Of a DNA stretch of 64,000 bases, positions 46,620 through 62,611 are shown piece by piece; the first letter of the stretch is position 1, and every line of letters begins with the position of its first letter. The notes under the pieces are model-generated. The model saw nothing but the letters and a program-made list of their open reading frames with translations. It did not search any database and was not told the DNA's origin. This DNA is from Acidiferrobacterales bacterium (GTDB taxonomy: Bacteria > Pseudomonadota > Gammaproteobacteria > Acidiferrobacterales > SPGG2): positions 19,431-83,430 of the forward strand of contig JBHICC010000002.1 of the NCBI GenBank assembly GCA_046759385.1, given 5' to 3'. The translations under genes and the position numbers were made by a program.

Positions 46620-47873
46620 CTATTCAGCTAGTTGTAGTCTCGTTTGGACGTCGACTTCGGCGTGCAAGGTTCTGTGAACCGGGCACTTGTCGGCGATCTC
46701 GCGCAACTTCTGTCGCTGTGCTTCGGTCAGATCACCCTCGAGAATAAGTACCCTGTCGATGTGATCGATTTTGCCCTCTTTCGTCTCGCAGTGTTGGCAA
46801 TCCTCGGCATGGGTTTTTTGATGGCTCAGTTTCACCAACACCCTATCTAGCGGGAGCTTCTTGAAACGCGCATACATGCGCAAAGTCATGCTGGTGCAAG
46901 TGCCAAGACTCGCGAGCAGCAATTCGTACGGATCGGGACCGGTGTCACGCCCGCCGTTCTTGATCGGTTCATCAGCCATTAAATGATGCGAATCGGTGAA
47001 AATGTCGTTCGTGAAACTGGGATCGGTTTCCCGCACCAGCACCTCGCCCGCACTGAGCGTACGGCGAGGGCGGATATTGTCAGCCTGCTGCGTGTCCGGT
47101 ATGTATCGACTCGCCCAGGCCGCGATTGTCTCGGCTACATATTGAGAATCCTGTCGACGACTCAGCAAATGGTCCGCGTTGTCCAAGGAAACGAAACTTT
47201 TCGGATGTTTCGCCGCTTCATAGATGTGCCGCGCATTGTCGATGTCCACGATTTCATCGCGCGGCGAGTGGAAGATAAGCAGAGCCTTCTTCATGCGCGC
47301 GATTTGATCATGCAGATTCTGGTGACGAGTGTCCTCCAGAAACTGTTTCTTGATCCTGAAACTGCGACCGGCCAGGTTCACGGTCGCCTCGCCCTGCGCA
47401 TCGATCTCGTCAAGCTTTGCTTCGAAAAGATGGGTCACATGCGCTGGATCGCCCGGCGCACCGATGGTAGCAACCGCCTTGGTCTCTTCAATCCTTTCCG
47501 CGGCTGCTAGGACCGCCGCGCCACCGAGACTGTGACCTACCAGTACGGCCGGCGCGCTCAGTGCATCGCGCATGTAATCGGCGGCTGCGATCAAGTCGGC
47601 GACGTTGGAGGAAAAATTGGTATTCGCGAAATCGCCCTCGCTGTTACCCAACCCGGTAAAGTCGAACCGCACGACGCCGATGCCCTTCGCTGCTAAGGCC
47701 CGGCTGATGCGACCGGCCGCAGCAATGTCCTTGGAGCAGGTGAAGCAATGGGCGAATAGCGCGTAGGCGATTGGCTCACCGGCAGGCCGCTCCAAAAGCG
47801 CTGCGAGCTGTTCGTTGCTTTGGTTTGTAAAGGTCAATTTGTCTCTGCGGACGGTTATCTGCGCTTCTTTCAT
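46620..47873 (-). CDS. bifunctional alpha/beta hydrolase / OsmC-family protein
   Basis: The N-terminal hydrolase has the nucleophile elbow GHSLGG. The C-terminal OsmC-like domain reads [24 protein letters not shown]. Confidence 0.75.
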
Positions 47874-50265: not shown

Positions 50266-50736
50266 ATGGCATTAACGCTTACATCGTCGGCATTCGCTCA
50301 AAATGGCGATATCCGAAAACGTTACACCTGTGATGGCGATGACATATCGCCGGACCTGTCCTGGACTGGTGTACCGAATGGAACCGAGAGTCTGGCGTTA
50401 ATCGTCGATGATCCTGATGCACCGGATCCGGCAGCACCGCAGATGGTTTGGGTGCACTGGGTACTTTATAACATTCCGCCCAACACCACGGGTCTACCGG
50501 AGGCGGTAAGGTCGAGTGATCTGGCGTCCGGAACCCGGGAAGGGCTCAACGATTGGAAGCGCACGGGCTACGGTGGGCCGTGCCCGCCTGTTGGCCGCCA
50601 TCGTTATTTTCACAAGCTTTATGCGTTGGATGTTACGCTTCCTGATCTCGGCCAACCGACGAAGGGAGCGCTCGAGAAAGCTATGCAAGGGCACATTCTC
50701 GAGCGAGCGGAATTGATTGGGACCTATCAGCGCTGA
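50266..50736 (+). CDS. YbhB/YbcL-family phosphatidylethanolamine-binding (PEBP) protein
   Basis: LTSSAF..G..I...YTCDG.DISP.LSW, DDPDAP and GRHRY.F.LYALD motifs. Confidence 0.8.
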   Translation: MALTLTSSAFAQNGDIRKRYTCDGDDISPDLSWTGVPNGTESLALIVDDPDAPDPAAPQMVWVHWVLYNIPPNTTGLPEAVRSSDLASGTREGLNDWKRTGYGGPCPPVGRHRYFHKLYALDVTLPDLGQPTKGALEKAMQGHILERAELIGTYQR

Positions 50737-51656
50737 AGTCCCTTTCGCTGTTCCTCTAAGCCGTCCCAAAACGCAGCGACACCGTCTAACATCTCATTAC
50801 CATGGCGTATAAAGGCGTCCTCATCCATGTCGGCGCTAAAGTAAAGCTCTTCCAACTCTTCTTGTGTGTGTTGCGCATGTTGCGCTTCGAGTCGCGCATG
50901 CCAGGTAAAGAACGCAAGTGGGAGCTTGGCACCAGTACGCTCGTTGCACTTGTTAAACCCCTCGACAAGCTCATCCCAAAACCCCGCTGCCGCCCAGTTC
51001 TCAACCGCATAGCTAGCGGCCTGGGAGATCAGGTAGTCTTCACTGCCGTATAATCTCTTCAATTCGTCGCAAAAGAAAAGCGTGGACTGGGTTCCGTGAC
51101 GACGTTTACCCACGTCATTGAAATCCAACTCTAATTTCGATGCGATCTGCAGCAACCACTCGAAGTGTGCGGCACGGAACCGGAACGTACCGCCCTCTAC
51201 CGTCCCTTCGCACGAAACCAGCTGTGGATCGACATCGTCATTCGCCGCTAGCGTTGCCCTGGCAGCACCTCCTGATTTGAAAACGACACCGATCTCGTTG
51301 GCAAGGATTTCCTTGGACGCTCGCATTCCCTCAAGCGAATCAGCGTTAATTGTCTTGTACAGCTGCGCGATCAGGAACAAATTAGAGAAGACCGAGAACT
51401 GAACGATGAAAGCCTTGATCTGTTCAGTTGTCTGTCTGCCTTGTTTGAACCAACCGGTATATCGGTTGTCCGTAATGACGCGATGTTGCAATACCTTCGT
51501 GTTAATGCGGGCCTGGAATGCCAGAAACCGCCTCGCCTTCTGGACAGAGTAGCCCGTCTGGCCTTTGACGATTGCCTGCAACGACGGCAATGTCAGGCCA
51601 ACGAGGTCATGCTCCTCGGCAAAGGTCTCCAGTTTCGGGTTCGTCGCTACGCTCAT
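50727..51656 (-). CDS. heme-oxygenase-like fold, putative diiron (iron-containing redox enzyme family) protein
   Basis: 309 aa, predicted all-helical. Carboxylate/His pattern: ANE (helix 1), AAHFEW, YAVENW, and C-terminal WHARLEAQH (H-x3-E-x2-H). Family assigned by motif pattern only. Confidence 0.55.
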   Translation of the reverse strand: MSVATNPKLETFAEEHDLVGLTLPSLQAIVKGQTGYSVQKARRFLAFQARINTKVLQHRVITDNRYTGWFKQGRQTTEQIKAFIVQFSVFSNLFLIAQLYKTINADSLEGMRASKEILANEIGVVFKSGGAARATLAANDDVDPQLVSCEGTVEGGTFRFRAAHFEWLLQIASKLELDFNDVGKRRHGTQSTLFFCDELKRLYGSEDYLISQAASYAVENWAAAGFWDELVEGFNKCNERTGAKLPLAFFTWHARLEAQHAQHTQEELEELYFSADMDEDAFIRHGNEMLDGVAAFWDGLEEQRKGLQR

Positions 51657-51816
51657 GAATTCACCTCGTTATGAAGATTCCGTCCTGCTGCGGGCAGGAA
51701 GTGTCCACCCCATGGCACACCTACCGAAATCAGTGAACACCCCACTACCAAAGGCAGCGTCTTACTGACAATTTTAGACGATGGTGCGCATACCGGGTTC
51801 CTCGGCATGTAAACTC

Positions 51817-52461
51817 TTATTCGGCGTCTGCTTGATTTTCCGGTGCTGCCGCTTGGAATGCCGCGAGGCGCATGCAGTGCTCATGAATTTGCTGAATCAT
51901 CGGATAAGCACTTAGATCGCAGTTGAAACGTTTGGCATTGAAGACTTGTGGTACCAGACATACATCCGCCAAGGTGGGCGAACCACCATAGCAATATGAC
52001 TCGGCGTCTAGATTGCTCGTTAGGTGGGTTTCAAACGCCTCGAACCCCTCATGGATCCAGTGTTTGTACCAATCCAGGCGAGCCTGTTCCTCGTGTCCCA
52101 AGCGTCCTGTGAGGTATTTCAACACACGCTGGTTATTTAGAGGGTGAATATCGCACGCCACGATCTCGGCGAGCGAACGCACGTAGGCACGTTCACCCAC
52201 CGTCTCCGGGAGCAGTGGTGGATCCGGATAGACCTCATCAATGTATTCGATGATCGCGAGCGATTGAGTGAGTACCCGTCCATCATGAATCAAGGTAGGC
52301 ACAAAACCTTGGGGGTTCAGCTCCAGGTACTCTGGTCGCTTGTGTTGACCACCGTCCCTGACAAGGTGTACAGAATGCGATTGGTAGTCGAGCCTTTTCA
52401 AATTCAGCGCAATGCGTACGCGAAATGCAGCGGAACTCCTGAAGTACGTATACAGTTGCAT
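51817..52461 (-). CDS. maiA: maleylacetoacetate isomerase (GST zeta)
   Basis: MQLYTYFRSSAAFRVRIALNLK (SSxxxRVRIAL signature) and position next to the fah/hmgA genes. The start is taken at ATG 52461. Confidence 0.85.
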   Translation of the reverse strand: MQLYTYFRSSAAFRVRIALNLKRLDYQSHSVHLVRDGGQHKRPEYLELNPQGFVPTLIHDGRVLTQSLAIIEYIDEVYPDPPLLPETVGERAYVRSLAEIVACDIHPLNNQRVLKYLTGRLGHEEQARLDWYKHWIHEGFEAFETHLTSNLDAESYCYGGSPTLADVCLVPQVFNAKRFNCDLSAYPMIQQIHEHCMRLAAFQAAAPENQADAE

Positions 52462-52638
52462 AGCGCGCTGCATAATCAGTACCTCGCCATCCAATAACTA
52501 CGCAACGCAAAGGCGCAGAGGTTTTCGGATGGTTGAAGCGACAGCTGTAACGCATAATTTGACGAACCCATCTCTTACACCTACTTCTGTATTTTGATAT
52601 TACTCTGCACGTTCGCGCCTCTGTGTTTGCTGTTGGAA

Positions 52639-53622
52639 TTAGGCTTTGTATTTTTGCACCACCTGTTCGATCGCACCGAAGATACTCGCCCCGGAACTGT
52701 CCAGCATTTCTATGCGCACGCGATCGCCATAATGCATAAATGGGGTTACCGCCTTTCCCGTATCTATAATCTCGAGCACGCGCCGCTCGGCAATACAAGA
52801 ACAACCTCGTGTGAGATCTTCGTTCGAGATCGTACCCGAACCGACAATCGTGCCTGCACTGAGACGTCGGGTTTTTGCCGCATGACTGACCAAGGCAGGA
52901 AAGTCAAACTGCATGTCTGCGCCTGTATCGGGATTCCCGAATAATTCGTCATTGAGAAGGGTGAGTAAAGGCAAGTGAACTTTGCCGCCGTCCCAAGTTT
53001 CGCCGAGCTCATCAGGCGTCACGGCAACAGGGGAAAACGCGCTTGCAGGTTTTCCATGCAGGAAACCGAAGCCTTTCGCGAGTTCTGCTGGGATCAGGTT
53101 ACGCAACGATACGTCGTTGACGAGCATGAGCAGCTTGATGTGACCGCGCGCTTCGGACGGCGCTGCACCCATCGGGACATCGTCCGTGATCACGCTGACT
53201 TCGGCTTCAAAGTCCACGCCCCATTTTTCGTCCGCGACGAAAATGGAGTCACGCGGGCCAAGGAAGTCGTCGGATCCTCCTTGATACATCAGCGGATCAC
53301 TCAAGAAGCTTGGTGGCATCTCCGCCCCGCGCGCCTTACGGACGCGCTCGACATGGGTGAGATAGGCGCTTCCGTCAAGCCATTGATAAGCGCGTGGCAA
53401 AGGCGAGGCGAGCGCATCGAAATCGAGTTCGAAGCCGTTGATCTTCTTTGTGTTAAGCGCTTCGCACACCGCAGCAAGCGCAGGGGCCGTGCGTTCCCAG
53501 TCTTCGAGTGCAGCTTGCAGGGTGAGGGCGTGTTCAGGGACTTTGCAGGCGCGCGTCAGATTGCGGTTTACGACAATCAGGGTACCATCGCTGCCGCCCG
53601 ACTTAAGTGAAGCAAGCTTCAC
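52639..53622 (-). CDS. fumarylacetoacetate hydrolase family protein
   Basis: MKLASLKSGGSDGTLIVV N-terminus using GTG 53622 (GTGA overlap with the hmgA stop) and FAH-fold C-terminal motifs (GTIVGSGTISN). Its role as fumarylacetoacetase is inferred from context. Confidence 0.75.
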   Translation of the reverse strand: MKLASLKSGGSDGTLIVVNRNLTRACKVPEHALTLQAALEDWERTAPALAAVCEALNTKKINGFELDFDALASPLPRAYQWLDGSAYLTHVERVRKARGAEMPPSFLSDPLMYQGGSDDFLGPRDSIFVADEKWGVDFEAEVSVITDDVPMGAAPSEARGHIKLLMLVNDVSLRNLIPAELAKGFGFLHGKPASAFSPVAVTPDELGETWDGGKVHLPLLTLLNDELFGNPDTGADMQFDFPALVSHAAKTRRLSAGTIVGSGTISNEDLTRGCSCIAERRVLEIIDTGKAVTPFMHYGDRVRIEMLDSSGASIFGAIEQVVQKYKA

Positions 53623-54755
53623 GTGTTGCTGTTTTTCCAAGAATCGACATAACCGGTCCACTCGACTTCCGCCAATCGTGTCCCGACGTCTAGCGCATCG
53701 CGCGTGTCGATCATAACGGCAACTTCGTTCGTTTCCTTGCGGGTAGCCTCTTGCCCGGCTGCAAAGGCCTTCGGGTGCGGACCATGCGTAATACCGCTTG
53801 GATGCAAGGTCAGCATCCCAGGATGGATGTTATCGCGAGAGAAGAACTCGCCACGATGGTAAAAGATCACCTCGTCGTAATCGTCGTTATTGTGAAAGAA
53901 AGGCACCTTAAGTGCCCCGGGGTCGCTTTCGATCGGGCGCGGACAGAACGTGCAAACCACGAAGCGATTGGTGAGGAACGTGGTATGCGCAGACGGTGGT
54001 ACATGATAACGATGACTCATGAGTGGTCGAATGTCGCGCCAGTTCAAGCGCACTGGGACTAAAGTGCCATGCCAACCAACAGCATCGAGCGGGTTGAACG
54101 GATAGGTAACAGTACTCAAAGCGCCGCGTCGCTTGACAACGATCTGCCATGGACTGTCAGTCTGCTGGGCGGCGAAGGCGTCGTCGATCGATGGCGTCTT
54201 CAGTACTGCAGGATCGAAAACAGCGTGATGACCTACAATGCCTTTGTCGGGCAACCGGTAGCTGTCATCGCTGGCCTCGATCAGTAGAGCGATAAGCGGA
54301 TCTTTGATCTCCATCCGCCACAAGGTGCCTCTCGGCAACAGCACGTAGTCACCGTCGCCAAACGCGATATGACCGTAATCGCAGAACAGATCGCCCTTTC
54401 CTTCGTGAATGAATAGCAACTCGTCCCCGTCGGCGTTTCTCACAAGCTCGCTCATCGCCCGTGTAGCCTTCCACAGGCGAACACGCGCACTTGCATTGGC
54501 GAGCAGCTCGGTCGCTTCCCAAGGCGACTCTGACTGGCGCTCGAGCTTGGTGGTGTCGAACGCACGCGGTCGCAGGGGCCCGTCAACGGACGTCCAGCTT
54601 GTAGGCGGATGTCGGTGATACATCTGCGTCGATGGACCATAGAAGCCTTGCTTCCCGAGTTCGCGTTCGTAGGTATCTTGCGGAAGATCAGCGTGGGCTT
54701 GCCGAGACACGTTCCCTTCGATCTTGGGGAAGGAGATCCAGTGCGACTTCGCCAT
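53619..54755 (-). CDS. hmgA: homogentisate 1,2-dioxygenase (short form)
   Basis: 378-aa cupin-type protein (GFYGPSTQMYH, FIHEGKGDL, HPSGITHGPHP) between hppD and fah. Assignment relies partly on context. Confidence 0.7.
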   Translation of the reverse strand: MAKSHWISFPKIEGNVSRQAHADLPQDTYERELGKQGFYGPSTQMYHRHPPTSWTSVDGPLRPRAFDTTKLERQSESPWEATELLANASARVRLWKATRAMSELVRNADGDELLFIHEGKGDLFCDYGHIAFGDGDYVLLPRGTLWRMEIKDPLIALLIEASDDSYRLPDKGIVGHHAVFDPAVLKTPSIDDAFAAQQTDSPWQIVVKRRGALSTVTYPFNPLDAVGWHGTLVPVRLNWRDIRPLMSHRYHVPPSAHTTFLTNRFVVCTFCPRPIESDPGALKVPFFHNNDDYDEVIFYHRGEFFSRDNIHPGMLTLHPSGITHGPHPKAFAAGQEATRKETNEVAVMIDTRDALDVGTRLAEVEWTGYVDSWKNSNT

Positions 54756-54756
54756 T

Positions 54757-55812
54757 TCAGATCACTCCGCGAGCCACTTGATCGCGCTCGATCGCCTCGA
54801 ACAGAGCCTGGAAATTGCCCTCACCGAAACCCTGATTGCCCTTGCGTTGGATGATCTCGAAGAAGATCGGACCGATTACGGTCTCGGTGAATATCTGCAA
54901 CAGCAAGCCGAGATCCTTACGAGGTGCACCGTCAATTAGAATGCGATTGCGCCGTAGCCGCTTCAAGTCTTCACCATGGTCTGGAATGCGCTTCTCAATC
55001 GCCTCGTAATAGGTGTCAGGCGTGTCCATAAACTTGACATGCTGGCCACTTAGCGCTTCGACGGTGCTGTAGATGTCGTCCGTGGCGAGCGCGATATGCT
55101 GAATTCCCTCCCCGCGGTAATCCTCCAGGTATTCCTGAATCTGCGATTTCGCATCCGAAGGTTCATTAATGGGAATACGGATTTTCCCGCAGGGACTGGT
55201 CATCGCGCGCGACTTCAGCCCCGTCGCCTTGCCGTGGATGTCGAAGAAACGCGTCTCGCGGAAGTTAAACAGCCGCTCATAAAAGCTAGCCCAAAGATCC
55301 ATGCGACCCTTGTGCACATTGTGAGTGAGGTGGTCAACATACGCGAGCCCGACACCTGTCGGACGCGAAGGCACGCCGTCGATCGGCACGAAGTCAACGT
55401 CATAGATCGAGCGGTCACCATAGCGATCGATGAGATAAATAAGACTGCCACCGATTCCACGGATTGCGGGTATGTTTAGCTCCATGGGCCCGACGCGGCC
55501 TTCATAAGGTTCGGCGCCAAGCTCAACGGAACGTTCGTACGCATAGGCCGCGTCTTTGACTCTTATCCCAAATGCGCACACGGAGGGCCCGTGTACTTTC
55601 GCAAAGGCCTGAGCAAAGCTTTGCGGTTCGCGGTTGACGATGAAGTTGATATCACCCTGACGATAAAGCATCACGTCCTTAGAGCGGTGATGCGCTACCG
55701 CGGTGAAACCCATCTTTTGGAATAGCGCCTCGAGTAAGCCGGTATCAGGCCCCGTGTACTCGATGAACTCGAAACCATCTGTGCCCATGAGGTTTTCGGC
55801 AGGAGAGCTCAT
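54757..55812 (-). CDS. hppD: 4-hydroxyphenylpyruvate dioxygenase
   Basis: GFEFIEY N-terminus, GIQHIAL, and the C-terminal signature [24 protein letters not shown]. Confidence 0.9.
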
Positions 55813-55927: not shown

Positions 55928-57163
55928 TCAGCCGGCGTTCCGTTCGCGAACGCCTCGTTCGCTCCGCAGGGTCTGGGCCAAGCGCGCCACAGCCTCTGTA
56001 AGCTCTTGTTCTGTATTGAGAATATCTGGACAAAGGCGCAGCATCCGCTCGCGTGCGTCGGCGATAACGCCTTGTTGCCGCAGCCGTCTAGCGAGGTCCA
56101 CGCTGCGTTCGTGCGGGGTTGCTAGAAATGCGCCGCGCTGCTCCGGCGTGCCGATGACCGACACGCGTTGCTCGGCCAGCAGTTCTTCCAGGTACCGCTG
56201 CTGGCGCAAGGAATAGTCGCGGAGTCGTTCGACACCCAGCGCAAGAACGAACTCAAGCCCCGCACGTGCCTGGTAAAACGGTAGGATTGCCGGTGTAGAT
56301 TCCAAAAAAGCATCGCCTCCCCCGGAAAATCGTGGCCTCGCTGTACGCTCGAAATCAAGGGGCGCCGCAAGCGCGAACCAGCCTGTGTCGAGTGTTTGAA
56401 ATGTGCCATCAAGATGTCGTGGATGCAGATAAAGCCAGCCTGCACCCGTGCCACCGCGCAGATATTTGTAACAGCCACCGATTGCAAAATCAGCGTTCAG
56501 CTCTTGCACATCTACTGGCATTGCACCGGCGGCGTGATAGAGGTCAACGAGCACCAAGGTGCCGCGCGCCTGTGCGTTGGCAATGGCAGTCTGTAGCCCA
56601 TGGAGTAACTGACCAGTGCTATACAGGACTAACGATACCACCAGCAATCGGGTGGACTTGTCGAGCGCGTTCAGTATGTCTTCTACCTGGTATGAGCCAG
56701 TGGCGTCAGGTTCTACATACGTTATGTCAATGCGGCCGCGTTGTGCATACACTTTGAGAACGGTGTCGATCGAGTCGAACTCGTCGCACGTAGTCACGAC
56801 ACCAATGCGTTCGTCAAAGCAGTTCAATACAGCCCGCAACCCCTGCCCAGCACTAGCTTTGGGTACGATACAATCAGCGCGTGCCGCTTTAATCAGTCTC
56901 GCAACGCGGTGGCGAAATGCCTCGCGCTCACTAAGCCAGTCGTCCCAAGCTGCATCCATGCGCTCATACCAGAACCGCATCGCTTCCTGGACATCGACGG
57001 AAGTCTGATCTAGTGGACGGCCCAGCGAATGATTGGCTAGGTAGATTTCTTTGCCGGCATGCTGCAATGCCCGTGAGAACAGCGGGTGGATGTGTTGAAC
57101 CAATGCGGCTTCGGAGAACGCTGCGTCACCCAGACCGGCGACGGCGCCTTGAATATCAGTCAC
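55928..57163 (-). CDS. kynU: kynureninase-like PLP-dependent enzyme (aminotransferase class V fold)
   Basis: [16 protein letters not shown] and the PLP-Lys region [14 protein letters not shown] parallel Pseudomonas KynU motifs as I recall them. GTG 57163 overlaps the kynA stop (GTGA). The sequence is divergent, so function is partly contextual. Confidence 0.65.
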
Positions 57164-58083
57164 TGCTCCGGGCCGATCTCGGTGCGTACATCGTATAGCT
57201 CCGGGAAAAATCGTTGGTCCAACACACGGCGTAGGAACGCTACCCCGGATGAACCGCCTGTTCCGCGCTTGTAGCCGATGATGCGTTCGACCGTTTTCAT
57301 ATGACGAAAGCGCCACAACTGAAATTGCTCTTCGACATCGACCAACTTTTCGCACATAGCGTAGGGATCCCAGTGGTCATGCGGCGCGTCATATATCTGT
57401 TTAAACACAGGAATGAGTCCTTCGTTGCGCTGATAAGGACGCGACCAGTCGCGCTCTACGCTACCTTCAGGTACGGCGTAGCCTTGTCGATGGAGATGAC
57501 GTAAGAACTCGTCGTAGATACTGGGGCTTTCCAATGTTCGCTTAAGCTCGTCATAAGTCTCGCGATCGTACTGGAAGACCGCAAGCATGTCTCGATCCTT
57601 GTTGCCGAGAGTGTACTCGATGGCACGATATTGCGGCGATTGAATTCCTGAGGCATGGCCCAGTACATGCCTAAACTTGACGTATTCACTCGGTGTTAGC
57701 GTAGACAGAACGGCCCATTGCTCGAACAGCTGGAGTTGAATTAGCTTGACTCTTGCAAGGATCTTGAAACAGGGGTTCAAGTTGTCAGCCTTGATATGCT
57801 CAATAGCAGCACGCAACTCGTGAAGCACGAGCTTCATCCATAGCTCGGACGTCTGGTGTTGTATGATGAACAGCAGCTCGTCGTGGTGCGGTGGGCTGCT
57901 AAGCGGCTTTTGCGCGTCGAGCAGTTGATCAAGGCGCAAGTAGCGCGCATAGGTCAACTGACCGCGGAGGTCAAACTCGATTGCCTCGTTTTGCGCGCTG
58001 TCCTTTTTCGTATGACTGGCCACGCTCAGTCTTGAGCTGTTAGATGGGAACCCTTGTCCGCAAGCCAGCGGTTGCACATACAA
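57160..58083 (-). CDS. kynA: tryptophan 2,3-dioxygenase
   Basis: [40 protein letters not shown] is the TDO signature. The start codon is uncertain: TTG 58083 in the track, with in-frame GTG alternatives downstream. Confidence 0.85.
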
Positions 58084-58230: not shown

Positions 58231-59328
58231 ATGACTCTCCCGCAGGCAATGCAGTCAGCCGCAGCGCCGAAGCGACCCCTCGGCACGGGCGCAGACGTGT
58301 TCGAGCAAGCCCTTGCGCAGGGCTTTGGCGATGTCCACTTTAAGGTCGATTCGACCACCGGCCTGGCAGCGATCATCGCAATTCACAATACACAGCTCGG
58401 ACCGGCATTGGGTGGATGTCGCTGTATTCCCTATCGCTCCGCTGAAGCCGCATTGTTTGACGCGATGCGACTTGCACGTGGCATGACTTATAAGGCCGCC
58501 ATCTCCGGTTTGGCCTCCGGTGGCGGCAAGGCGGTATTAATACGGCCACCGGAAATCAACGATCGCGAGGCCTATTTCGAAAGTTTTGGCCGCTTCGTCG
58601 ACCAACTCGGCGGACGTTACATCACCGCCGTCGATAGCGGCACAAGCGTATCGGACATGGATATCATAGCGCGCTGCACCAAGCATGTAGCCTGTACTTC
58701 AGAAAGTCGTGCCGGCACCGGCGACCCCTCGCCGCACACGGCGGTAGGCGTGCGCCGGGGGATCGAAGCGGCGGTGAAATTCAGGTTGAATAAAGACGAT
58801 CTCGACGGTGTGCACGTGGCGATACAGGGCGTCGGCCATGTCGGTTATTCACTCGCGAGAGACTTAGCTGGGCGCGGCGCGAAGCTTACTGTTAGCGACA
58901 TGAATCAGCGCGCCACCCAACGTTGCGCTGATGAGTTTGGTGCCGTTGTGGCGGCGCCAGAGCGGATCTACGACATACCAAGCGACGTGTTCGCGCCCTG
59001 TGCGTTGGGTGCGATCATCAACGACGATACTCTGCCACGGCTTAATACCCGCATCGTCGCCGGCGCGGCCAATAATCAGCTTGCCGAGGTCCGACATGGC
59101 GATGAGTTACACAAGCGTGGAATAGTGTACGCTCCAGATTATTTGGTTAATGCCGGCGGTATTATTCAGATCATCATCGAAGATGAATCCGAAATAAACG
59201 AGAAGATTCTAAATATTTATAATACGCTTGCGAGCATCTTGGAGCGATCAGCGGCAACAAACACCGCTCCCCATCGCGTCGCAGACATCATGGTCGACGC
59301 GATGCTATCGGGGCAGCGCTCATCTTGA
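58231..59328 (+). CDS. Leu/Phe/Val dehydrogenase (Glu/Leu/Phe/Val dehydrogenase family)
   Basis: LGPALGGCR, catalytic-Lys motif SGGGKAVLI, and NAD-binding IQGVGHVG. Directly upstream of the branched-chain keto-acid dehydrogenase genes. Confidence 0.85.
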   Translation: MTLPQAMQSAAAPKRPLGTGADVFEQALAQGFGDVHFKVDSTTGLAAIIAIHNTQLGPALGGCRCIPYRSAEAALFDAMRLARGMTYKAAISGLASGGGKAVLIRPPEINDREAYFESFGRFVDQLGGRYITAVDSGTSVSDMDIIARCTKHVACTSESRAGTGDPSPHTAVGVRRGIEAAVKFRLNKDDLDGVHVAIQGVGHVGYSLARDLAGRGAKLTVSDMNQRATQRCADEFGAVVAAPERIYDIPSDVFAPCALGAIINDDTLPRLNTRIVAGAANNQLAEVRHGDELHKRGIVYAPDYLVNAGGIIQIIIEDESEINEKILNIYNTLASILERSAATNTAPHRVADIMVDAMLSGQRSS

Positions 59329-59383
59329 GCTGACATAATTAACACCAATAACGAGCAATCCGCGTCTGGAAGGAAACAACGCG

Positions 59384-60532
59384 ATGACCCACATCGATAA
59401 AACGGCCGTTGGCCAACGGGTGCCAGATAGTGATGCACAGGCGACAGTGCCCGCAGGCGAATGCGTCGCGAGTTTCGAAATCCTCTACACACAGTTCCTT
59501 GACTCTACTTCGCAAGTAAAGGGCCCGCTCCCAGATTTTGCGCAAGATCCAAACAATCTGCTGTCGCTTTACCGTGCCATGGTGCGCACGCGCCTTTTCG
59601 ATAAAAAGGCGATCGCATTGCAGCGAACCGGACAGCTTGGCACATATGCTTCAGCATTAGGGCAGGAAGCCAGCTTTGTCGGGGTCGGCGCCGTAATGCA
59701 GCCCGAGGATGTGTTACTGCCGACCTACCGGGAGTGCGGCACGATGTTCGAGCGCGGCGTCAGTATGAAGGAACTGCTACTTTACTGGGGGGGTGACGAA
59801 CGTGGTATGGATTATGTTGGACCGCGCGAGGATTTCCCGATCTGTATCCCGATCGCGACCCATGTGGCGCACGCTGTCGGTGTGGCCTATGCGATCAAGC
59901 TAAGAGAGCAGCCACGTGTCGCGGTTTGTATGCTGGGTGACGGTGCCACGTCTAAGGGCGACTTTTATGAGGCGCTGAACCTCGCTGGCGTGTGGCAGCT
60001 CCCTGTGCTTTTCGTCGTATGTAATAACCAGTGGGCGATCTCGGTACCGCGAGTTGCCCAGACCTCCGCCGAGACCTTGGCGCAGAAAGCTATTGCCGCC
60101 GGGATCGAGGGCAAGCAAGTGGATGGCAACGATGTGATTGCGGTGCGCTACGCTGCCGAGCAAGCCATCGCGAAGGCGCGGCGTGGCGATGGCCCGTATC
60201 TTATCGAAGCCCTGAGTTATCGCATGGGTGATCACACCACGGCAGATGACGCCAGCCGCTATCGAACCGAAGCGGAGCTTAACGAGCAGTGGAAATTCGA
60301 CCCGATCAAACGGCTGCACGATTATCTGGTGGCAAACGGGCATTGGAGTGATGACGCGGAAAAGAAACTAAGTGAACAATGTAGTGCCGAGATTGACCAG
60401 GCAGTCAAGGAATATCTAGCGACACCCGCGCCGCCCCCGGAGGCCATGTTCGATTATCTCCATGAGACTCTGCCGACTGCCTTTGCGGAGCAACGTGAAC
60501 AAGCTCGTACCCGAGGACCACGTGGTGCCTGA
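59384..60532 (+). CDS. bkdA1: 2-oxoisovalerate (branched-chain alpha-keto acid) dehydrogenase E1 alpha
   Basis: TPP-binding motif GDGATSKGDFYEALNLAGVWQLPVLFVVCNNQWAIS. Confidence 0.85.
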   Translation: MTHIDKTAVGQRVPDSDAQATVPAGECVASFEILYTQFLDSTSQVKGPLPDFAQDPNNLLSLYRAMVRTRLFDKKAIALQRTGQLGTYASALGQEASFVGVGAVMQPEDVLLPTYRECGTMFERGVSMKELLLYWGGDERGMDYVGPREDFPICIPIATHVAHAVGVAYAIKLREQPRVAVCMLGDGATSKGDFYEALNLAGVWQLPVLFVVCNNQWAISVPRVAQTSAETLAQKAIAAGIEGKQVDGNDVIAVRYAAEQAIAKARRGDGPYLIEALSYRMGDHTTADDASRYRTEAELNEQWKFDPIKRLHDYLVANGHWSDDAEKKLSEQCSAEIDQAVKEYLATPAPPPEAMFDYLHETLPTAFAEQREQARTRGPRGA

Positions 60533-61505
60533 GGTCACCTTGGTCGAAGCGGTTAACCTGGCGTTGGCGCATGAGATGCAAGCGGATGGGGACGTGGTGG
60601 TATTAGGGGAGGATGTCGGCACTAACGGCGGGGTGTTCCGGGCCACGGTGGGTTTACAAGAGCGCTTCGGCAAAGCGCGCGTGATGGACACGCCGCTTGC
60701 CGAGGCATTGATCGCGGGCATGTCGATCGGCATGGCAGCTCAGGGGTTGCGGCCGGTGCCTGAGGTCCAGTTCATGGGGTTCATCTATCCCACAATTGAT
60801 CAGATGTTGAACCATGCCGCGCGTTTGCGCTACCGGACTCGCGGTCGGCTCACGTGCCCGATGGTGCTGCGCGCACCGTTCGGCGGCGGTATCCATGCCC
60901 CTGAGCATCATTCGGAAAGTACGGAATCGATGTTCGCGCACATCCCCGGTCTACGAGTGGTTATTCCTTCGTCACCTTCACGCGCTTACGGCCTGTTACT
61001 GGCGGCGATTCGCGATTCTGACCCGGTGGTCTTTCTTGAGCCCAAGCGTATCTATCGTCTGATTAAACAAGACGTCGAAGACAACGGCGAGGCGCTACCG
61101 CTGGATGTCTGTTTCGTGTTGCGGGAAGGAACGGACATTACGTTGGTAACTTGGGGTGCGATGACACACGAAACGACTCTGGCTGCGGAGCAACTTGCCA
61201 ATGAAGGGATCAGCGCGGAGGTAATCGATGTAGCGACGATTAAACCGCTAGACATGGAAACGATCCTTCAGTCGGTAGCGAAAACGGGACGCTGTGTGAT
61301 CATCCACGAAGCGGCGCGCACAGCGGGGATGGGCGCCGAGATTGCAGCACAGTTGGCGGAACGCGGTCTACTTAGTCTGTTCGCACCCGTACAGCGTGTC
61401 GCCGGCTATGATACGGTGATGCCGTTATACCGACTAGAAAAGGAGTACATGCCAGATACGGAGCGCATTATGGCGGCTGCGAAGCAAACGATGGAGATGA
61501 CATGA
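60522..61505 (+). CDS. bkdA2: 2-oxoisovalerate dehydrogenase E1 beta
   Basis: TLVEAVNLALAHEM..D..VVVLGEDVG..GGVFR.T.GL is a typical E1-beta N-terminus. GTG 60522 is chosen so the gene begins at the end of E1 alpha; the ORF track begins at 60462. Confidence 0.85.
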   Translation: MVPEVTLVEAVNLALAHEMQADGDVVVLGEDVGTNGGVFRATVGLQERFGKARVMDTPLAEALIAGMSIGMAAQGLRPVPEVQFMGFIYPTIDQMLNHAARLRYRTRGRLTCPMVLRAPFGGGIHAPEHHSESTESMFAHIPGLRVVIPSSPSRAYGLLLAAIRDSDPVVFLEPKRIYRLIKQDVEDNGEALPLDVCFVLREGTDITLVTWGAMTHETTLAAEQLANEGISAEVIDVATIKPLDMETILQSVAKTGRCVIIHEAARTAGMGAEIAAQLAERGLLSLFAPVQRVAGYDTVMPLYRLEKEYMPDTERIMAAAKQTMEMT

Positions 61506-62611
61506 GCATCTTCAAGCTACCTGATCTCGGTGAGGGCCTCCAAGAGGCGGAAATCCGAGAATGGCATGTGTCGGTGGGTGAAGAGGTTAAGGAAGATCAA
61601 CCGCTAGTCTCGGTTGAGACTGCGAAGGCCATTGTCGATATTCCCAGCCCTCGCAGCGGCCGTATCCAGAAGTTAAACGGCAGTCCGGGCGAGATCCTGC
61701 AAGTGGGTGATCCGCTGATCGAGTTCGAAGGTAAGACCAATGAGCAGCCGTCAGATAAGGGAACCGTCGTCGGTCGAGTCGAGGTCGGTAAGGAAGTTGT
61801 CACCGAGAAGCCGACAACGGCGGGCAAAGCTGTCGATGGCGTCAAGGCGGTGCCTGCGGTACGGGCGCTGGCCAAGAGACTGAACGTAGACATCTCCATC
61901 ATTAAACCGAGCGGCCCCGACGGGACAGTCACTGCTGCGGACGTCCAACGCGCAGCCAAGGTATTGGAAGACGTCGGGCCGATTGAGCCCCTACGGGGTG
62001 TGCGACGCGCAATGGCACGTAGTATGACGCAAGCTCATGACGAGGTCGCCGCCGTAACTGTTGTTGACGATGCAGATCTACACGCTTGGGAAGAAGGGCA
62101 AGATGTTACCTTACGACTCATTCGTGCGATCGTGGCCGGTTGCAAAGCGGAGCCGGCGCTCAATGCTTGGTACGACAGTCACGCAGTCGGGAGGCGTGTG
62201 ATCAAGAAGATCGATCTCGGTATTGCCGTCGACACCGAAGATGGTTTGTTCGTACCGGTATTGCATGACGTTGCGAACCGAGATCCGGCTGATTTGCGCA
62301 AGGGTTTGGAGTTACTCAAGCAAGATGTAAAGGCACGGACTGCACCGCCTGAAGAGCTGCGCGGTTATACCATCACACTCTCGAACTTCGGAACATTCGG
62401 CGGCCGTTACGCAGACCCGGTTGTCGTACCGCCGACGGTTGCAATTCTAGGCGCCGGCCGTGTACGCGATGAAGTGGTCGCTGTCGATGGTAAGCCGCAG
62501 GTCCACCGCGTCCTTCCGCTTTCTTTAAGCTTCGACCATCGCGCAGTTACTGGCGGAGAAGCGACCCGTTTTCTGATGGCGGTTATAAACGACCTGCGGT
62601 TGACCAGTTGA
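61502..62611 (+). CDS. bkdB: dihydrolipoamide acyltransferase E2 (branched-chain)
   Basis: Lipoyl domain with VETAKA, the E3-binding PAVRALAKRLNVDISI, and catalytic SFDHRAVTGGEA. ATGA overlap with E1 beta. Confidence 0.9.
   Translation: MSIFKLPDLGEGLQEAEIREWHVSVGEEVKEDQPLVSVETAKAIVDIPSPRSGRIQKLNGSPGEILQVGDPLIEFEGKTNEQPSDKGTVVGRVEVGKEVVTEKPTTAGKAVDGVKAVPAVRALAKRLNVDISIIKPSGPDGTVTAADVQRAAKVLEDVGPIEPLRGVRRAMARSMTQAHDEVAAVTVVDDADLHAWEEGQDVTLRLIRAIVAGCKAEPALNAWYDSHAVGRRVIKKIDLGIAVDTEDGLFVPVLHDVANRDPADLRKGLELLKQDVKARTAPPEELRGYTITLSNFGTFGGRYADPVVVPPTVAILGAGRVRDEVVAVDGKPQVHRVLPLSLSFDHRAVTGGEATRFLMAVINDLRLTS

Follow-up and report, generated by a model that had tools for sequence, protein, structure and literature searches.

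Gene X and dimetal oxidases of the heme-oxygenase-like kind

Heme-oxygenase-like (HO-like) dimetal oxidases (HDOs) are defined by a pattern of three histidines and three carboxylates (PMC7848743, PMC13108848), and about a dozen have been validated, all of them in natural-product/secondary-metabolite biosynthesis or in cofactor/4-aminobenzoate (pABA) biosynthesis (March 2026 review, PMC13108848). In canonical HDOs a few residues separate the first Glu from the first His, and a single core helix carries both (PMC7848743). The BesC-type enzymes (HrmI, PolF, AetD, SktA, MboA, SznF) have free amino acids as their substrates, and these chelate Fe1; CADD and NePabS have a sacrificial Tyr27 and Lys152, and PqqC and TenA are metal-independent (PMC13108848). 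Here we describe a gene, called X as a working name, that encodes a predicted HDO and lies behind genes of tyrosine catabolism in a 64,000-nucleotide (nt) stretch of an Acidiferrobacterales bacterium (assembly GCA_046759385.1, contig JBHICC010000002.1, positions 19,431 to 83,430; the window).

X is an open reading frame (ORF) of 309 codons on the minus strand (50727-51656) with an ATG start. A first-pass annotation of the window, made from the letters alone, had placed it on the strand of the catabolic genes, 160 nt beyond the maiA stop codon and overlapping a convergent PEBP gene (50266-50736) by 10 nt; the ORF and its strand are borne out on re-reading the translation, and both distances are exact. 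Upstream of X on the same strand are, in order, maiA, FAH, hmgA-like, hppD, kynU-like and TDO genes.

The same annotation had assigned X to the heme-oxygenase-like enzymes, and the fold model, the family profile, an hhalign comparison, Pfam matches among relatives and conserved three-His/three-carboxylate positions all agree with this. The AlphaFold2 model of X is all-helical (pLDDT 90.1, pTM 0.87), and Foldseek returns CADD as its top match (E = 3.5e-5; TM-score 0.79-0.83, by target length), followed by PqqC, TenA, HrmI, PolF, BesC, FlcD, UndA and HamA; the top 50 PDB matches are all HO-like-fold proteins, and the seven-helix fold is present. A profile of 28 diverse family sequences matches BesC (E = 2e-4), the 4-aminobenzoate synthase 9pj4 (4.6e-4) and the CADD-like Npun_F6505 (2.5e-3) in the PDB, and hhalign against the pABA-synthase chain gives a probability of 87.8%. 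Searches with Pfam models, which had been suggested as a check, gave a divided answer: PF14518 (Haem_oxygenas_2, 'iron-containing redox enzyme') is matched by 13 of the 28 relatives (best E = 2.2e-9), but X itself matches neither this model nor those for TenA and PqqC. One member of a subfamily with a short spacer (described below) has a precomputed PF14518 match, PF03070 (TenA) is matched weakly by three of the 28, and a single-sequence phmmer search of the PDB with X gave a spurious EsaI match only. The predicted fold, the family profile and the PF14518 matches of relatives place X in the HDO superfamily.

All of the motifs originally quoted as possible ligand sites are present, namely ANEIG (E121), AAHFEW (H164), YAVENW (E219) and WHARLEAQH, and the H-x3-(D/E)-x2-H spacing noted for the last block is found as H253-x3-E257-x2-H260. 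Conservation was scored in 163 full-length relatives (119 close and 44 distant), and the relevant parts of X are as follows.

51549-51656, minus strand: N-terminal extension, residues 1-36; two short helices, modelled with high confidence
51294-51296, minus strand: E121, N-E-x-G motif closing helix 108-121 at its C-terminal end; candidate for the first carboxylate, with Glu in 119/119 close and 32/44 distant relatives
51168-51293, minus strand: E121-H164 spacer, residues 122-163 (42 aa); interrupts the ligand-bearing core helix, which is undivided in canonical HDOs
51195-51197, minus strand: E154, (E/D)-G-G motif nine residues before H164; alternative or additional carboxylate candidate, E/D in 118/119 close and 32/36 non-gap distant relatives
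51165-51167, minus strand: H164, A-A-H-F-E-W at the start of helix 164-174; candidate first His, in 119/119 close and 36/44 distant relatives
51000-51002, minus strand: E219, A-V-E-N-W in core helix 2; candidate second carboxylate, in 119/119 close and 34/44 distant relatives
50877-50900, minus strand: H253-x3-E257-x2-H260, core helix 3; candidate ligand motif, each residue in 119/119 close and 30-32/44 distant relatives

Conservation of the seven candidate positions is thus ~70-85% in the distant homologues. BesC (4-chloro-allylglycine synthase, PDB 7TWA) has the same fold and aligns ligand for ligand at H164, E219 and H253/E257/H260: H164 falls on the ligand-segment His of both BesC and pABA synthase, E219 on the Glu of BesC 'YADE' and pABA synthase 'AFES', and the core-helix-3 motif on BesC HIDVEVGH. 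E154, a second conserved acidic residue inside the spacer that was absent from the earlier reading, stands opposite D-E-E of pABA synthase in the HMMER alignment; HMMER and hhalign differ on which acidic residue of X equals the CADD ligand Glu. As read from the alignments, the pattern in X matches the three-His/three-carboxylate definition of an HDO. A cysteine, C196, is also conserved.

CADD and NePabS (PDB 1RCW, 8VA9, 9PJ4) resemble X over nearly the full length in profile and hhalign comparisons, and have in common with it the three-His/three-carboxylate pattern, H-x3-(D/E)-x2-H included, and a Gln that is conserved in the auxiliary helix. X might then be a self-sacrificing or cofactor-forming enzyme of this type (a pABA synthase or similar), with its place among tyrosine genes incidental or regulatory. 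CADD is the best fold match, pABA synthase the second-best profile match and TIGR04305 (CADD) the only NCBIfam match, and many Trp and Tyr residues are invariant in the X family; however, X scores only 12.7 of the 200 bits set for TIGR04305, the position of the sacrificial Lys (10 residues past the core-helix-2 Glu) is L230, and the sacrificial Tyr aligns with T67, next to a Tyr (Y66) that is freely swapped for Phe in the family. X further differs from CADD in its Glu-His spacing (42 aa, or nine from E154), its 36 additional N-terminal residues, an identity of 14-16%, and a context that is catabolic and not that of folate synthesis, and we regard a CADD-type reaction as highly improbable.

PqqC and TenA/thiaminase II have the same seven-helix fold, but X keeps the dimetal-type ligand set. 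It has no Pfam or NCBIfam PqqC match at E <= 10 and no PF03070 match, and there are no pqq or thiamin genes near it in the window.

The spacing between the first Glu and first His is six residues in CADD (E81/H88) and nine in SznF. In X it had been put at about 35; the correct figure is 42, as the string quoted earlier (37 residues) is preceded by IGV and followed by AA. Among the 119 close homologues the spacer measures 37-45 aa, with a single exception of 52; in the short-spacer subfamily it is 21-23 aa, and even the shortest intact relatives have at least ~21, so a split ligand helix is a property of the X family as a whole. The inserted segment is therefore real, but it is not one insert peculiar to X: a base of ~21 or more residues is family-wide, and a ~20-aa stretch of variable length and low pLDDT (residues 127-150; 51207-51278) is added in X and its orthologues. 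In the model, helix 108-121 stops at E121 and helix 164-174 starts at H164, with short strands between; this segment is the sole low-confidence part (pLDDT <50 at residues 130-137 and 150-153), and in hhalign the insert falls within the E-E-x-G-x-x-x-H segment of pABA synthase. The loop (~22 aa in the shortest relatives, 42 aa in X) probably covers the active site, and may serve as the lid first suggested for it. BesC-type HDOs, at ~12-14% identity to X, have no such long split of the first ligand helix, and the tolerance of this helix for an insertion of 20-40 residues bears on how the labile HDO cofactors are assembled.

X belongs to a large family. A word-indexed search finds 4,802 homologues. 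In the best 120 of these identity is never below 68%, and their sources include Acidiferrobacterales, Nitrosococcus, Methylocaldum and Chromatiales; the 100% match, from an Acidiferrobacterales metagenome-assembled genome (MAG), is annotated as a hypothetical protein. An exhaustive search of 50%-identity representatives yields 433 clusters at E <= 0.001. Identity is ~70% between gammaproteobacterial orders, and by these sequence comparisons X is a real, conserved gene that looks expressed. Residues 1-36 are present in the proteobacterial and cyanobacterial-type orthologues, whereas those of the Krumholzibacteria type align only from about residue 37.

Relatives of X are named 'hypothetical protein', 'PqqC' (JGI, transferred from COG5424) or, in a single case, 'heme oxygenase-like domain-containing protein'. 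Of these names 'PqqC' has been transferred too far, and many database copies carry it wrongly. We found no publication describing the family and no curated Pfam or NCBIfam model for it, and none in the literature that pairs an HO-like or diiron enzyme with homogentisate or 4-hydroxyphenylpyruvate (4-HPP). The family forms a new clade, so far without a model, within a known superfamily. The published HDO census began from InterPro HO-like annotations (PMC7848743) and may have missed the X family.

Linkage to hppD and the homogentisate genes

Context was examined in 83 loci, searched by tblastn with the window's own proteins. In 22 of the 24 loci that have X at an identity of at least 62% and at least 5 kb on both flanks, hppD is present within 6 kb. 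The order hppD-hmgA-fah-maiA-X recurs in ~40 gammaproteobacterial species/loci, including the isolates Nitrosococcus halophilus and Methylocaldum, and conservation of the unit ends with X, as the 169-aa genes found 3' of it in Nitrosococcus and Methylocaldum are mutually unrelated.

Several other organizations are present. X is divergent from hppD in three loci (L045, L049, L051) and convergent with the operon in Alkalimarinus. In Delta-type MAGs (L050, L053) it diverges from a unit of aminotransferase and hppD genes, the HPPD being 32-33% identical to that of the window. The order is X-hppD-fah-hmgA in L055 and X-hppD on a Krumholzibacteriia contig (L065). On a megaplasmid of the cyanobacterium Kovacikia minuta, X is in mid-operon (hppD-hmgA-X-acetoacetyl-CoA-synthetase-like (AACS)-aminotransferase, with FAH divergent). 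In a sister subfamily, X' (35-40% identity, short spacer), the gene and that for HPPD are divergent in L086 and L089, a Melainabacteria locus (L090) has X' convergent with hmgA-FAH, and an aminotransferase follows X' in L092; linkage is also seen in a Fibrobacteraceae-labelled MAG. The X-HPPD pairing thus spans no fewer than six arrangements, four or five phyla and two X subfamilies. Outside the main type the paired HPPDs are 32-38% identical to that of the window; those of L053, L055 and L089 were tested with NCBIfam, and all three score above the 4HPPD equivalog cut-off.

Such linkage, across lineages and arrangements alike, marks X as an accessory member of homogentisate clusters, and conserved gene neighbourhood shows it to be functionally coupled to the tyrosine/homogentisate module, most tightly to HPPD. 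The earlier suggestion that X may act on a metabolite derived from an aromatic amino acid is strongly supported by this neighbourhood, both in the 22 of 24 loci and in the cross-phylum pairing. Unlike X, which is attached to a primary catabolic operon, the BesC-type HDOs are all in secondary-metabolite clusters; the cross-phylum catabolic association and the split ligand helix are both unprecedented for HDOs.

Where loci are rearranged, X tracks hppD over hmgA (seven cases versus two). This bears on the alternative that X acts on homogentisate or its quinone, either as a hydroquinone oxidase driving pyomelanin formation or in the handling of benzoquinone-acetate, in parallel with quinol oxidation by PqqC. 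PqqC is among the best fold matches (TM-score 0.60, by query length), X adjoins hmgA in Kovacikia and Melainabacteria, and tyrosine-derived melanin has been attributed to the hppD-hmgA-fah-maiA-X cluster of Methylocaldum (PMC10974252). In addition to the preference for hppD, however, X has the full metal-ligand set and PqqC is metal-independent, homogentisate autoxidation is spontaneous, and X is co-encoded with hmgA-fah-maiA, which remove homogentisate. We consider a role on the quinone quite unlikely.

Homogentisate clusters outside the Gammaproteobacteria in L053, L055, L090 and L095 have no maleylacetoacetate isomerase of the glutathione S-transferase (GST) type, and the operons of L053 (5832-6686) and L055 (14076-14690) include a Flavin_Reduct-domain protein that might take the isomerase's place or serve X as a reductase. 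The missing isomerase raises the question of whether X replaces or assists a canonical step, as a glutathione-independent maleylacetoacetate isomerase, an O2-dependent deaminase from Tyr to 4-HPP, or a factor maintaining Fe(II) in HPPD and HmgA. The gammaproteobacterial operons are without an aminotransferase, so that X would complete a five-step set, and HDOs commonly bind alpha-amino acids through Fe1 (PMC13108848). Yet a bona fide maiA stands alongside X in ~40 loci, aminotransferases do so in L053, L092 and L095, an amino-acid dehydrogenase of the ELFV family is near X in many loci, and isomerization needs no redox-active dimetal site of the kind that is also found fused to cytochrome b5 (below). 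Replacement of a canonical step is unlikely, and for the Tyr-to-4-HPP transamination itself X was rejected on account of the co-encoded aminotransferases. A role as kynurenine formamidase was likewise rejected, as the Methylocaldum, Kovacikia and Delta-type clusters are without TDO or kynU beside X. A UbiA prenyltransferase beside X' on L086 suggested a link to homogentisate prenylation; it is not repeated in L089-L092 and is treated as incidental.

Proposed role of X

The homogentisate route of tyrosine and phenylalanine breakdown is a textbook pathway regarded as complete. The best explanation of the sequence data, which we believe to be probably correct, is that X is a dimetal HDO tied to the HPPD/homogentisate module, likeliest an electron-requiring oxygenase that feeds or serves HPPD. 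A two-metal cofactor (Fe2 or Fe/Mn) would be held by H164, E219, H253, E257 and H260 together with E121 and/or E154, and X would activate O2 with electrons from an external donor. The need for a donor is suggested by two configurations. One homologue (P0128) is a natural fusion of a signal/transmembrane segment, a cytochrome b5 domain (HPGG motif) and an X domain in which all ligands are kept; in Alkalimarinus coralli a 79-aa CDGSH-type Fe-S protein, a candidate electron donor, is encoded 60 nt 3' of X on the same strand (L084, 9988-10227).

X most likely would act upstream of HPPD, as a peripheral 'feeder' oxygenase. The Kovacikia cluster has, alongside X, genes for the aminotransferase, HPPD, HmgA, FAH and acetoacetate activation, and the sole canonical step missing is maleylacetoacetate isomerization; in the Gammaproteobacteria maiA coexists with X. 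Together these argue that X supplies an additional, non-canonical function. Phe-to-Tyr hydroxylation is the one classical function never encoded in X clusters: a regular-expression search of the 1.36 Mb of collected loci found no iron motif of pterin-dependent aromatic hydroxylases, which shows phhA to be unclustered, not absent from the genomes. Feeder hydroxylases that cluster with hmgA have a precedent in OhpA, a P450 2-hydroxyphenylacetate 5-hydroxylase (PMC8449657). A feeder oxygenase is favoured by the additional function, the tracking of hppD, the lack of a clustered Phe hydroxylase and the OhpA precedent taken together. The likeness of X to OhpA and to the pterin-dependent Phe hydroxylase system PhhA/PhhB would be one of genomic role only (PMC8449657), their folds and cofactors being wholly unrelated to those of X. 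The amino-acid substrates of BesC-type HDOs also fit a position beside amino-acid catabolic genes, and beside the PLP and 2OG enzyme genes of Gloeothece described below.

Our leading but tentative guess at the reaction is a pterin-independent para-hydroxylation of Phe to Tyr or of phenylpyruvate to 4-HPP; hydroxylation of a hydroxyphenylacetate to homogentisate is less likely. X may even be the founder of a class of HDOs with a catabolic function, as a diiron aromatic hydroxylase that needs no pterin and acts on Phe/phenylpyruvate or on hydroxyphenylacetate, although we are doubtful of this. If it is, X would fill the Phe-to-Tyr role in the many autotrophic and methanotrophic Gammaproteobacteria, Cyanobacteria and candidate phyla that have X and no phhA in their homogentisate operons. 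In that case both a place in primary metabolism and hydroxylation of an aromatic ring would be new among HDOs, and the enzyme would use a ligand helix split by a 22-42-aa lid. A housekeeping-type catabolic HDO would in any case widen the scope of the superfamily, and would point to an unrecognized step or entry point in aromatic amino-acid catabolism. The gene itself travels with HPPD in several phyla, has thousands of copies, and belongs to a superfamily with unusual O2 chemistry.

A number of observations weigh against an HPPD-feeding HDO. X alone has no Pfam match at E <= 10, and its sole NCBIfam match is the sub-threshold one to TIGR04305 (E = 0.07, 12.7 bits against a 200-bit cut-off), so that superfamily membership rests on the profile and fold evidence. 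The first carboxylate is ambiguous in the alignments, with E121 and E154 both candidates, and to our knowledge the E-to-H spacing of X has no precedent among characterized HDOs. We also know of no HDO that hydroxylates an aromatic ring, which makes the specific reaction a guess. The gap between maiA and X is generally 75-450 nt across loci, so X may be transcribed from a promoter of its own. Nor is the link to HPPD found everywhere. Some 27 orthologues of the Krumholzibacteria type (56-63% identity) lack any pathway gene within 10 kb, and on plasmid Cy782201 of Gloeothece verrucosa PCC 7822 (L094, 8935-11830) the X orthologue WP_013334551.1 heads a tight three-gene operon with a PF10014 2-oxoglutarate (2OG)-Fe dioxygenase and a class-V pyridoxal phosphate (PLP) enzyme/aminotransferase annotated as 'cysteine desulfurase-like'. 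This orthologue is 70% identical to X of Kovacikia, yet has a different context. De novo ORF clustering of the Krumholzibacteria-type loci, swamped by spurious high-GC ORFs, gave no conserved neighbour, and a Pfam scan of one of these loci found unrelated genes only; copies in Elusimicrobia and Litoribacillus are also without pathway neighbours.

These exceptions are what would be seen if the neighbourhood reflects no more than shared regulation or history and X modifies some unrelated amino-acid derivative, after the manner of secondary metabolism and of all HDOs validated so far. A further fusion, P0131 (555 aa), joins an N-terminal S-adenosylmethionine (SAM)-methyltransferase domain to an X domain (three members of the same length, from Logan contigs) and is in keeping with such a role. 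The pairing with HPPD nonetheless recurs in too many settings (the arrangements, phyla and subfamilies listed above, with HPPDs ~33% identical), the ~70% identity over gammaproteobacterial orders suggests a housekeeping-like constraint, and no biosynthetic-cluster genes flank X in the window. We judge an unrelated substrate improbable and prefer the HPPD-linked oxygenase.

The window locus and variant relatives

The features around X in the window are as follows.

51664-51667, minus strand: GAGG ribosome-binding site of X, 7 nt before the ATG, read from the sequence
51657-51816, minus strand: 160-nt maiA-X spacer
51817-52494, minus strand: maiA, maleylacetoacetate isomerase, the direct upstream neighbour of X; TIGR01262, 297.6 bits against an equivalog cut-off of 171
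52639-53661, minus strand: FAH family gene of the FAA_hydro_N_2 type by Pfam; no NCBIfam match
53619-54755, minus strand: short, divergent homogentisate 1,2-dioxygenase-like gene (hmgA-like); partial PF20510 match, TIGR01015 at 87.6 bits against a cut-off of 510.75
54757-55812, minus strand: hppD, 4-hydroxyphenylpyruvate dioxygenase; TIGR01263, 414.7 bits against an equivalog cut-off of 277
55928-57355, minus strand: kynU-like (kynureninase-like) gene, divergent; 86 bits against a cut-off of 246
57160-58083, minus strand: TDO, tryptophan 2,3-dioxygenase; 381 bits, slightly below the cut-off of 390.7

No promoter, terminator or Rfam element was seen in the maiA-X spacer, with neither a terminator-like nor a sigma-70-like site on the minus strand, and co-transcription of maiA and X is possible. 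The pathway enzymes of the window are atypical: the hmgA-like product has only 378 aa, and its ORF overlaps that of fah by 43 nt. The kynU-like ORF, with a GTG start, overlaps TDO by ~195 nt, and the true kynU start is therefore probably further downstream.

Divergent from TDO is a module on the plus strand (58231-62611) of an ELFV-family amino-acid dehydrogenase, whose best NCBIfam match is the tryptophan dehydrogenase ScyB (329 bits against a cut-off of 600), followed by branched-chain 2-oxoacid dehydrogenase-like E1alpha, E1beta and E2. At least 12 other loci also have this module beside the hppD cluster, which suggests a larger conserved supercluster for aromatic and branched-chain amino-acid catabolism. 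On the other side of X, at 46620-47873 on the minus strand, is a 417-aa fusion of an alpha/beta-hydrolase domain and a C-terminal OsmC-like peroxiredoxin domain. In related loci of the Acidiferrobacterales (L005, L007) this fusion is conserved at a position downstream of the PEBP gene.

The contig that encodes the cytochrome b5 fusion (L093, 10001-11176) also contains trypsin, TIL, MIOX and DUF5871 genes, giving it a eukaryote-like or giant-virus-like look, and has no tyrosine/homogentisate pathway genes. The Methylocaldum sp. GT1BB replicon with hppD-hmgA-fah-maiA-X (L017, NZ_CP194902.1) is titled 'plasmid unnamed' and is 5.3 Mb in length; it is very likely a mislabelled chromosome. A separate AT-rich branch of the family from Tara/JGI marine contigs (P0164, a cluster of 72 members) has lost the N-E-x-G segment and has Asn in place of both core-helix-3 His residues, with H164 and E219 retained, and may be a mononuclear or metal-free derivative.

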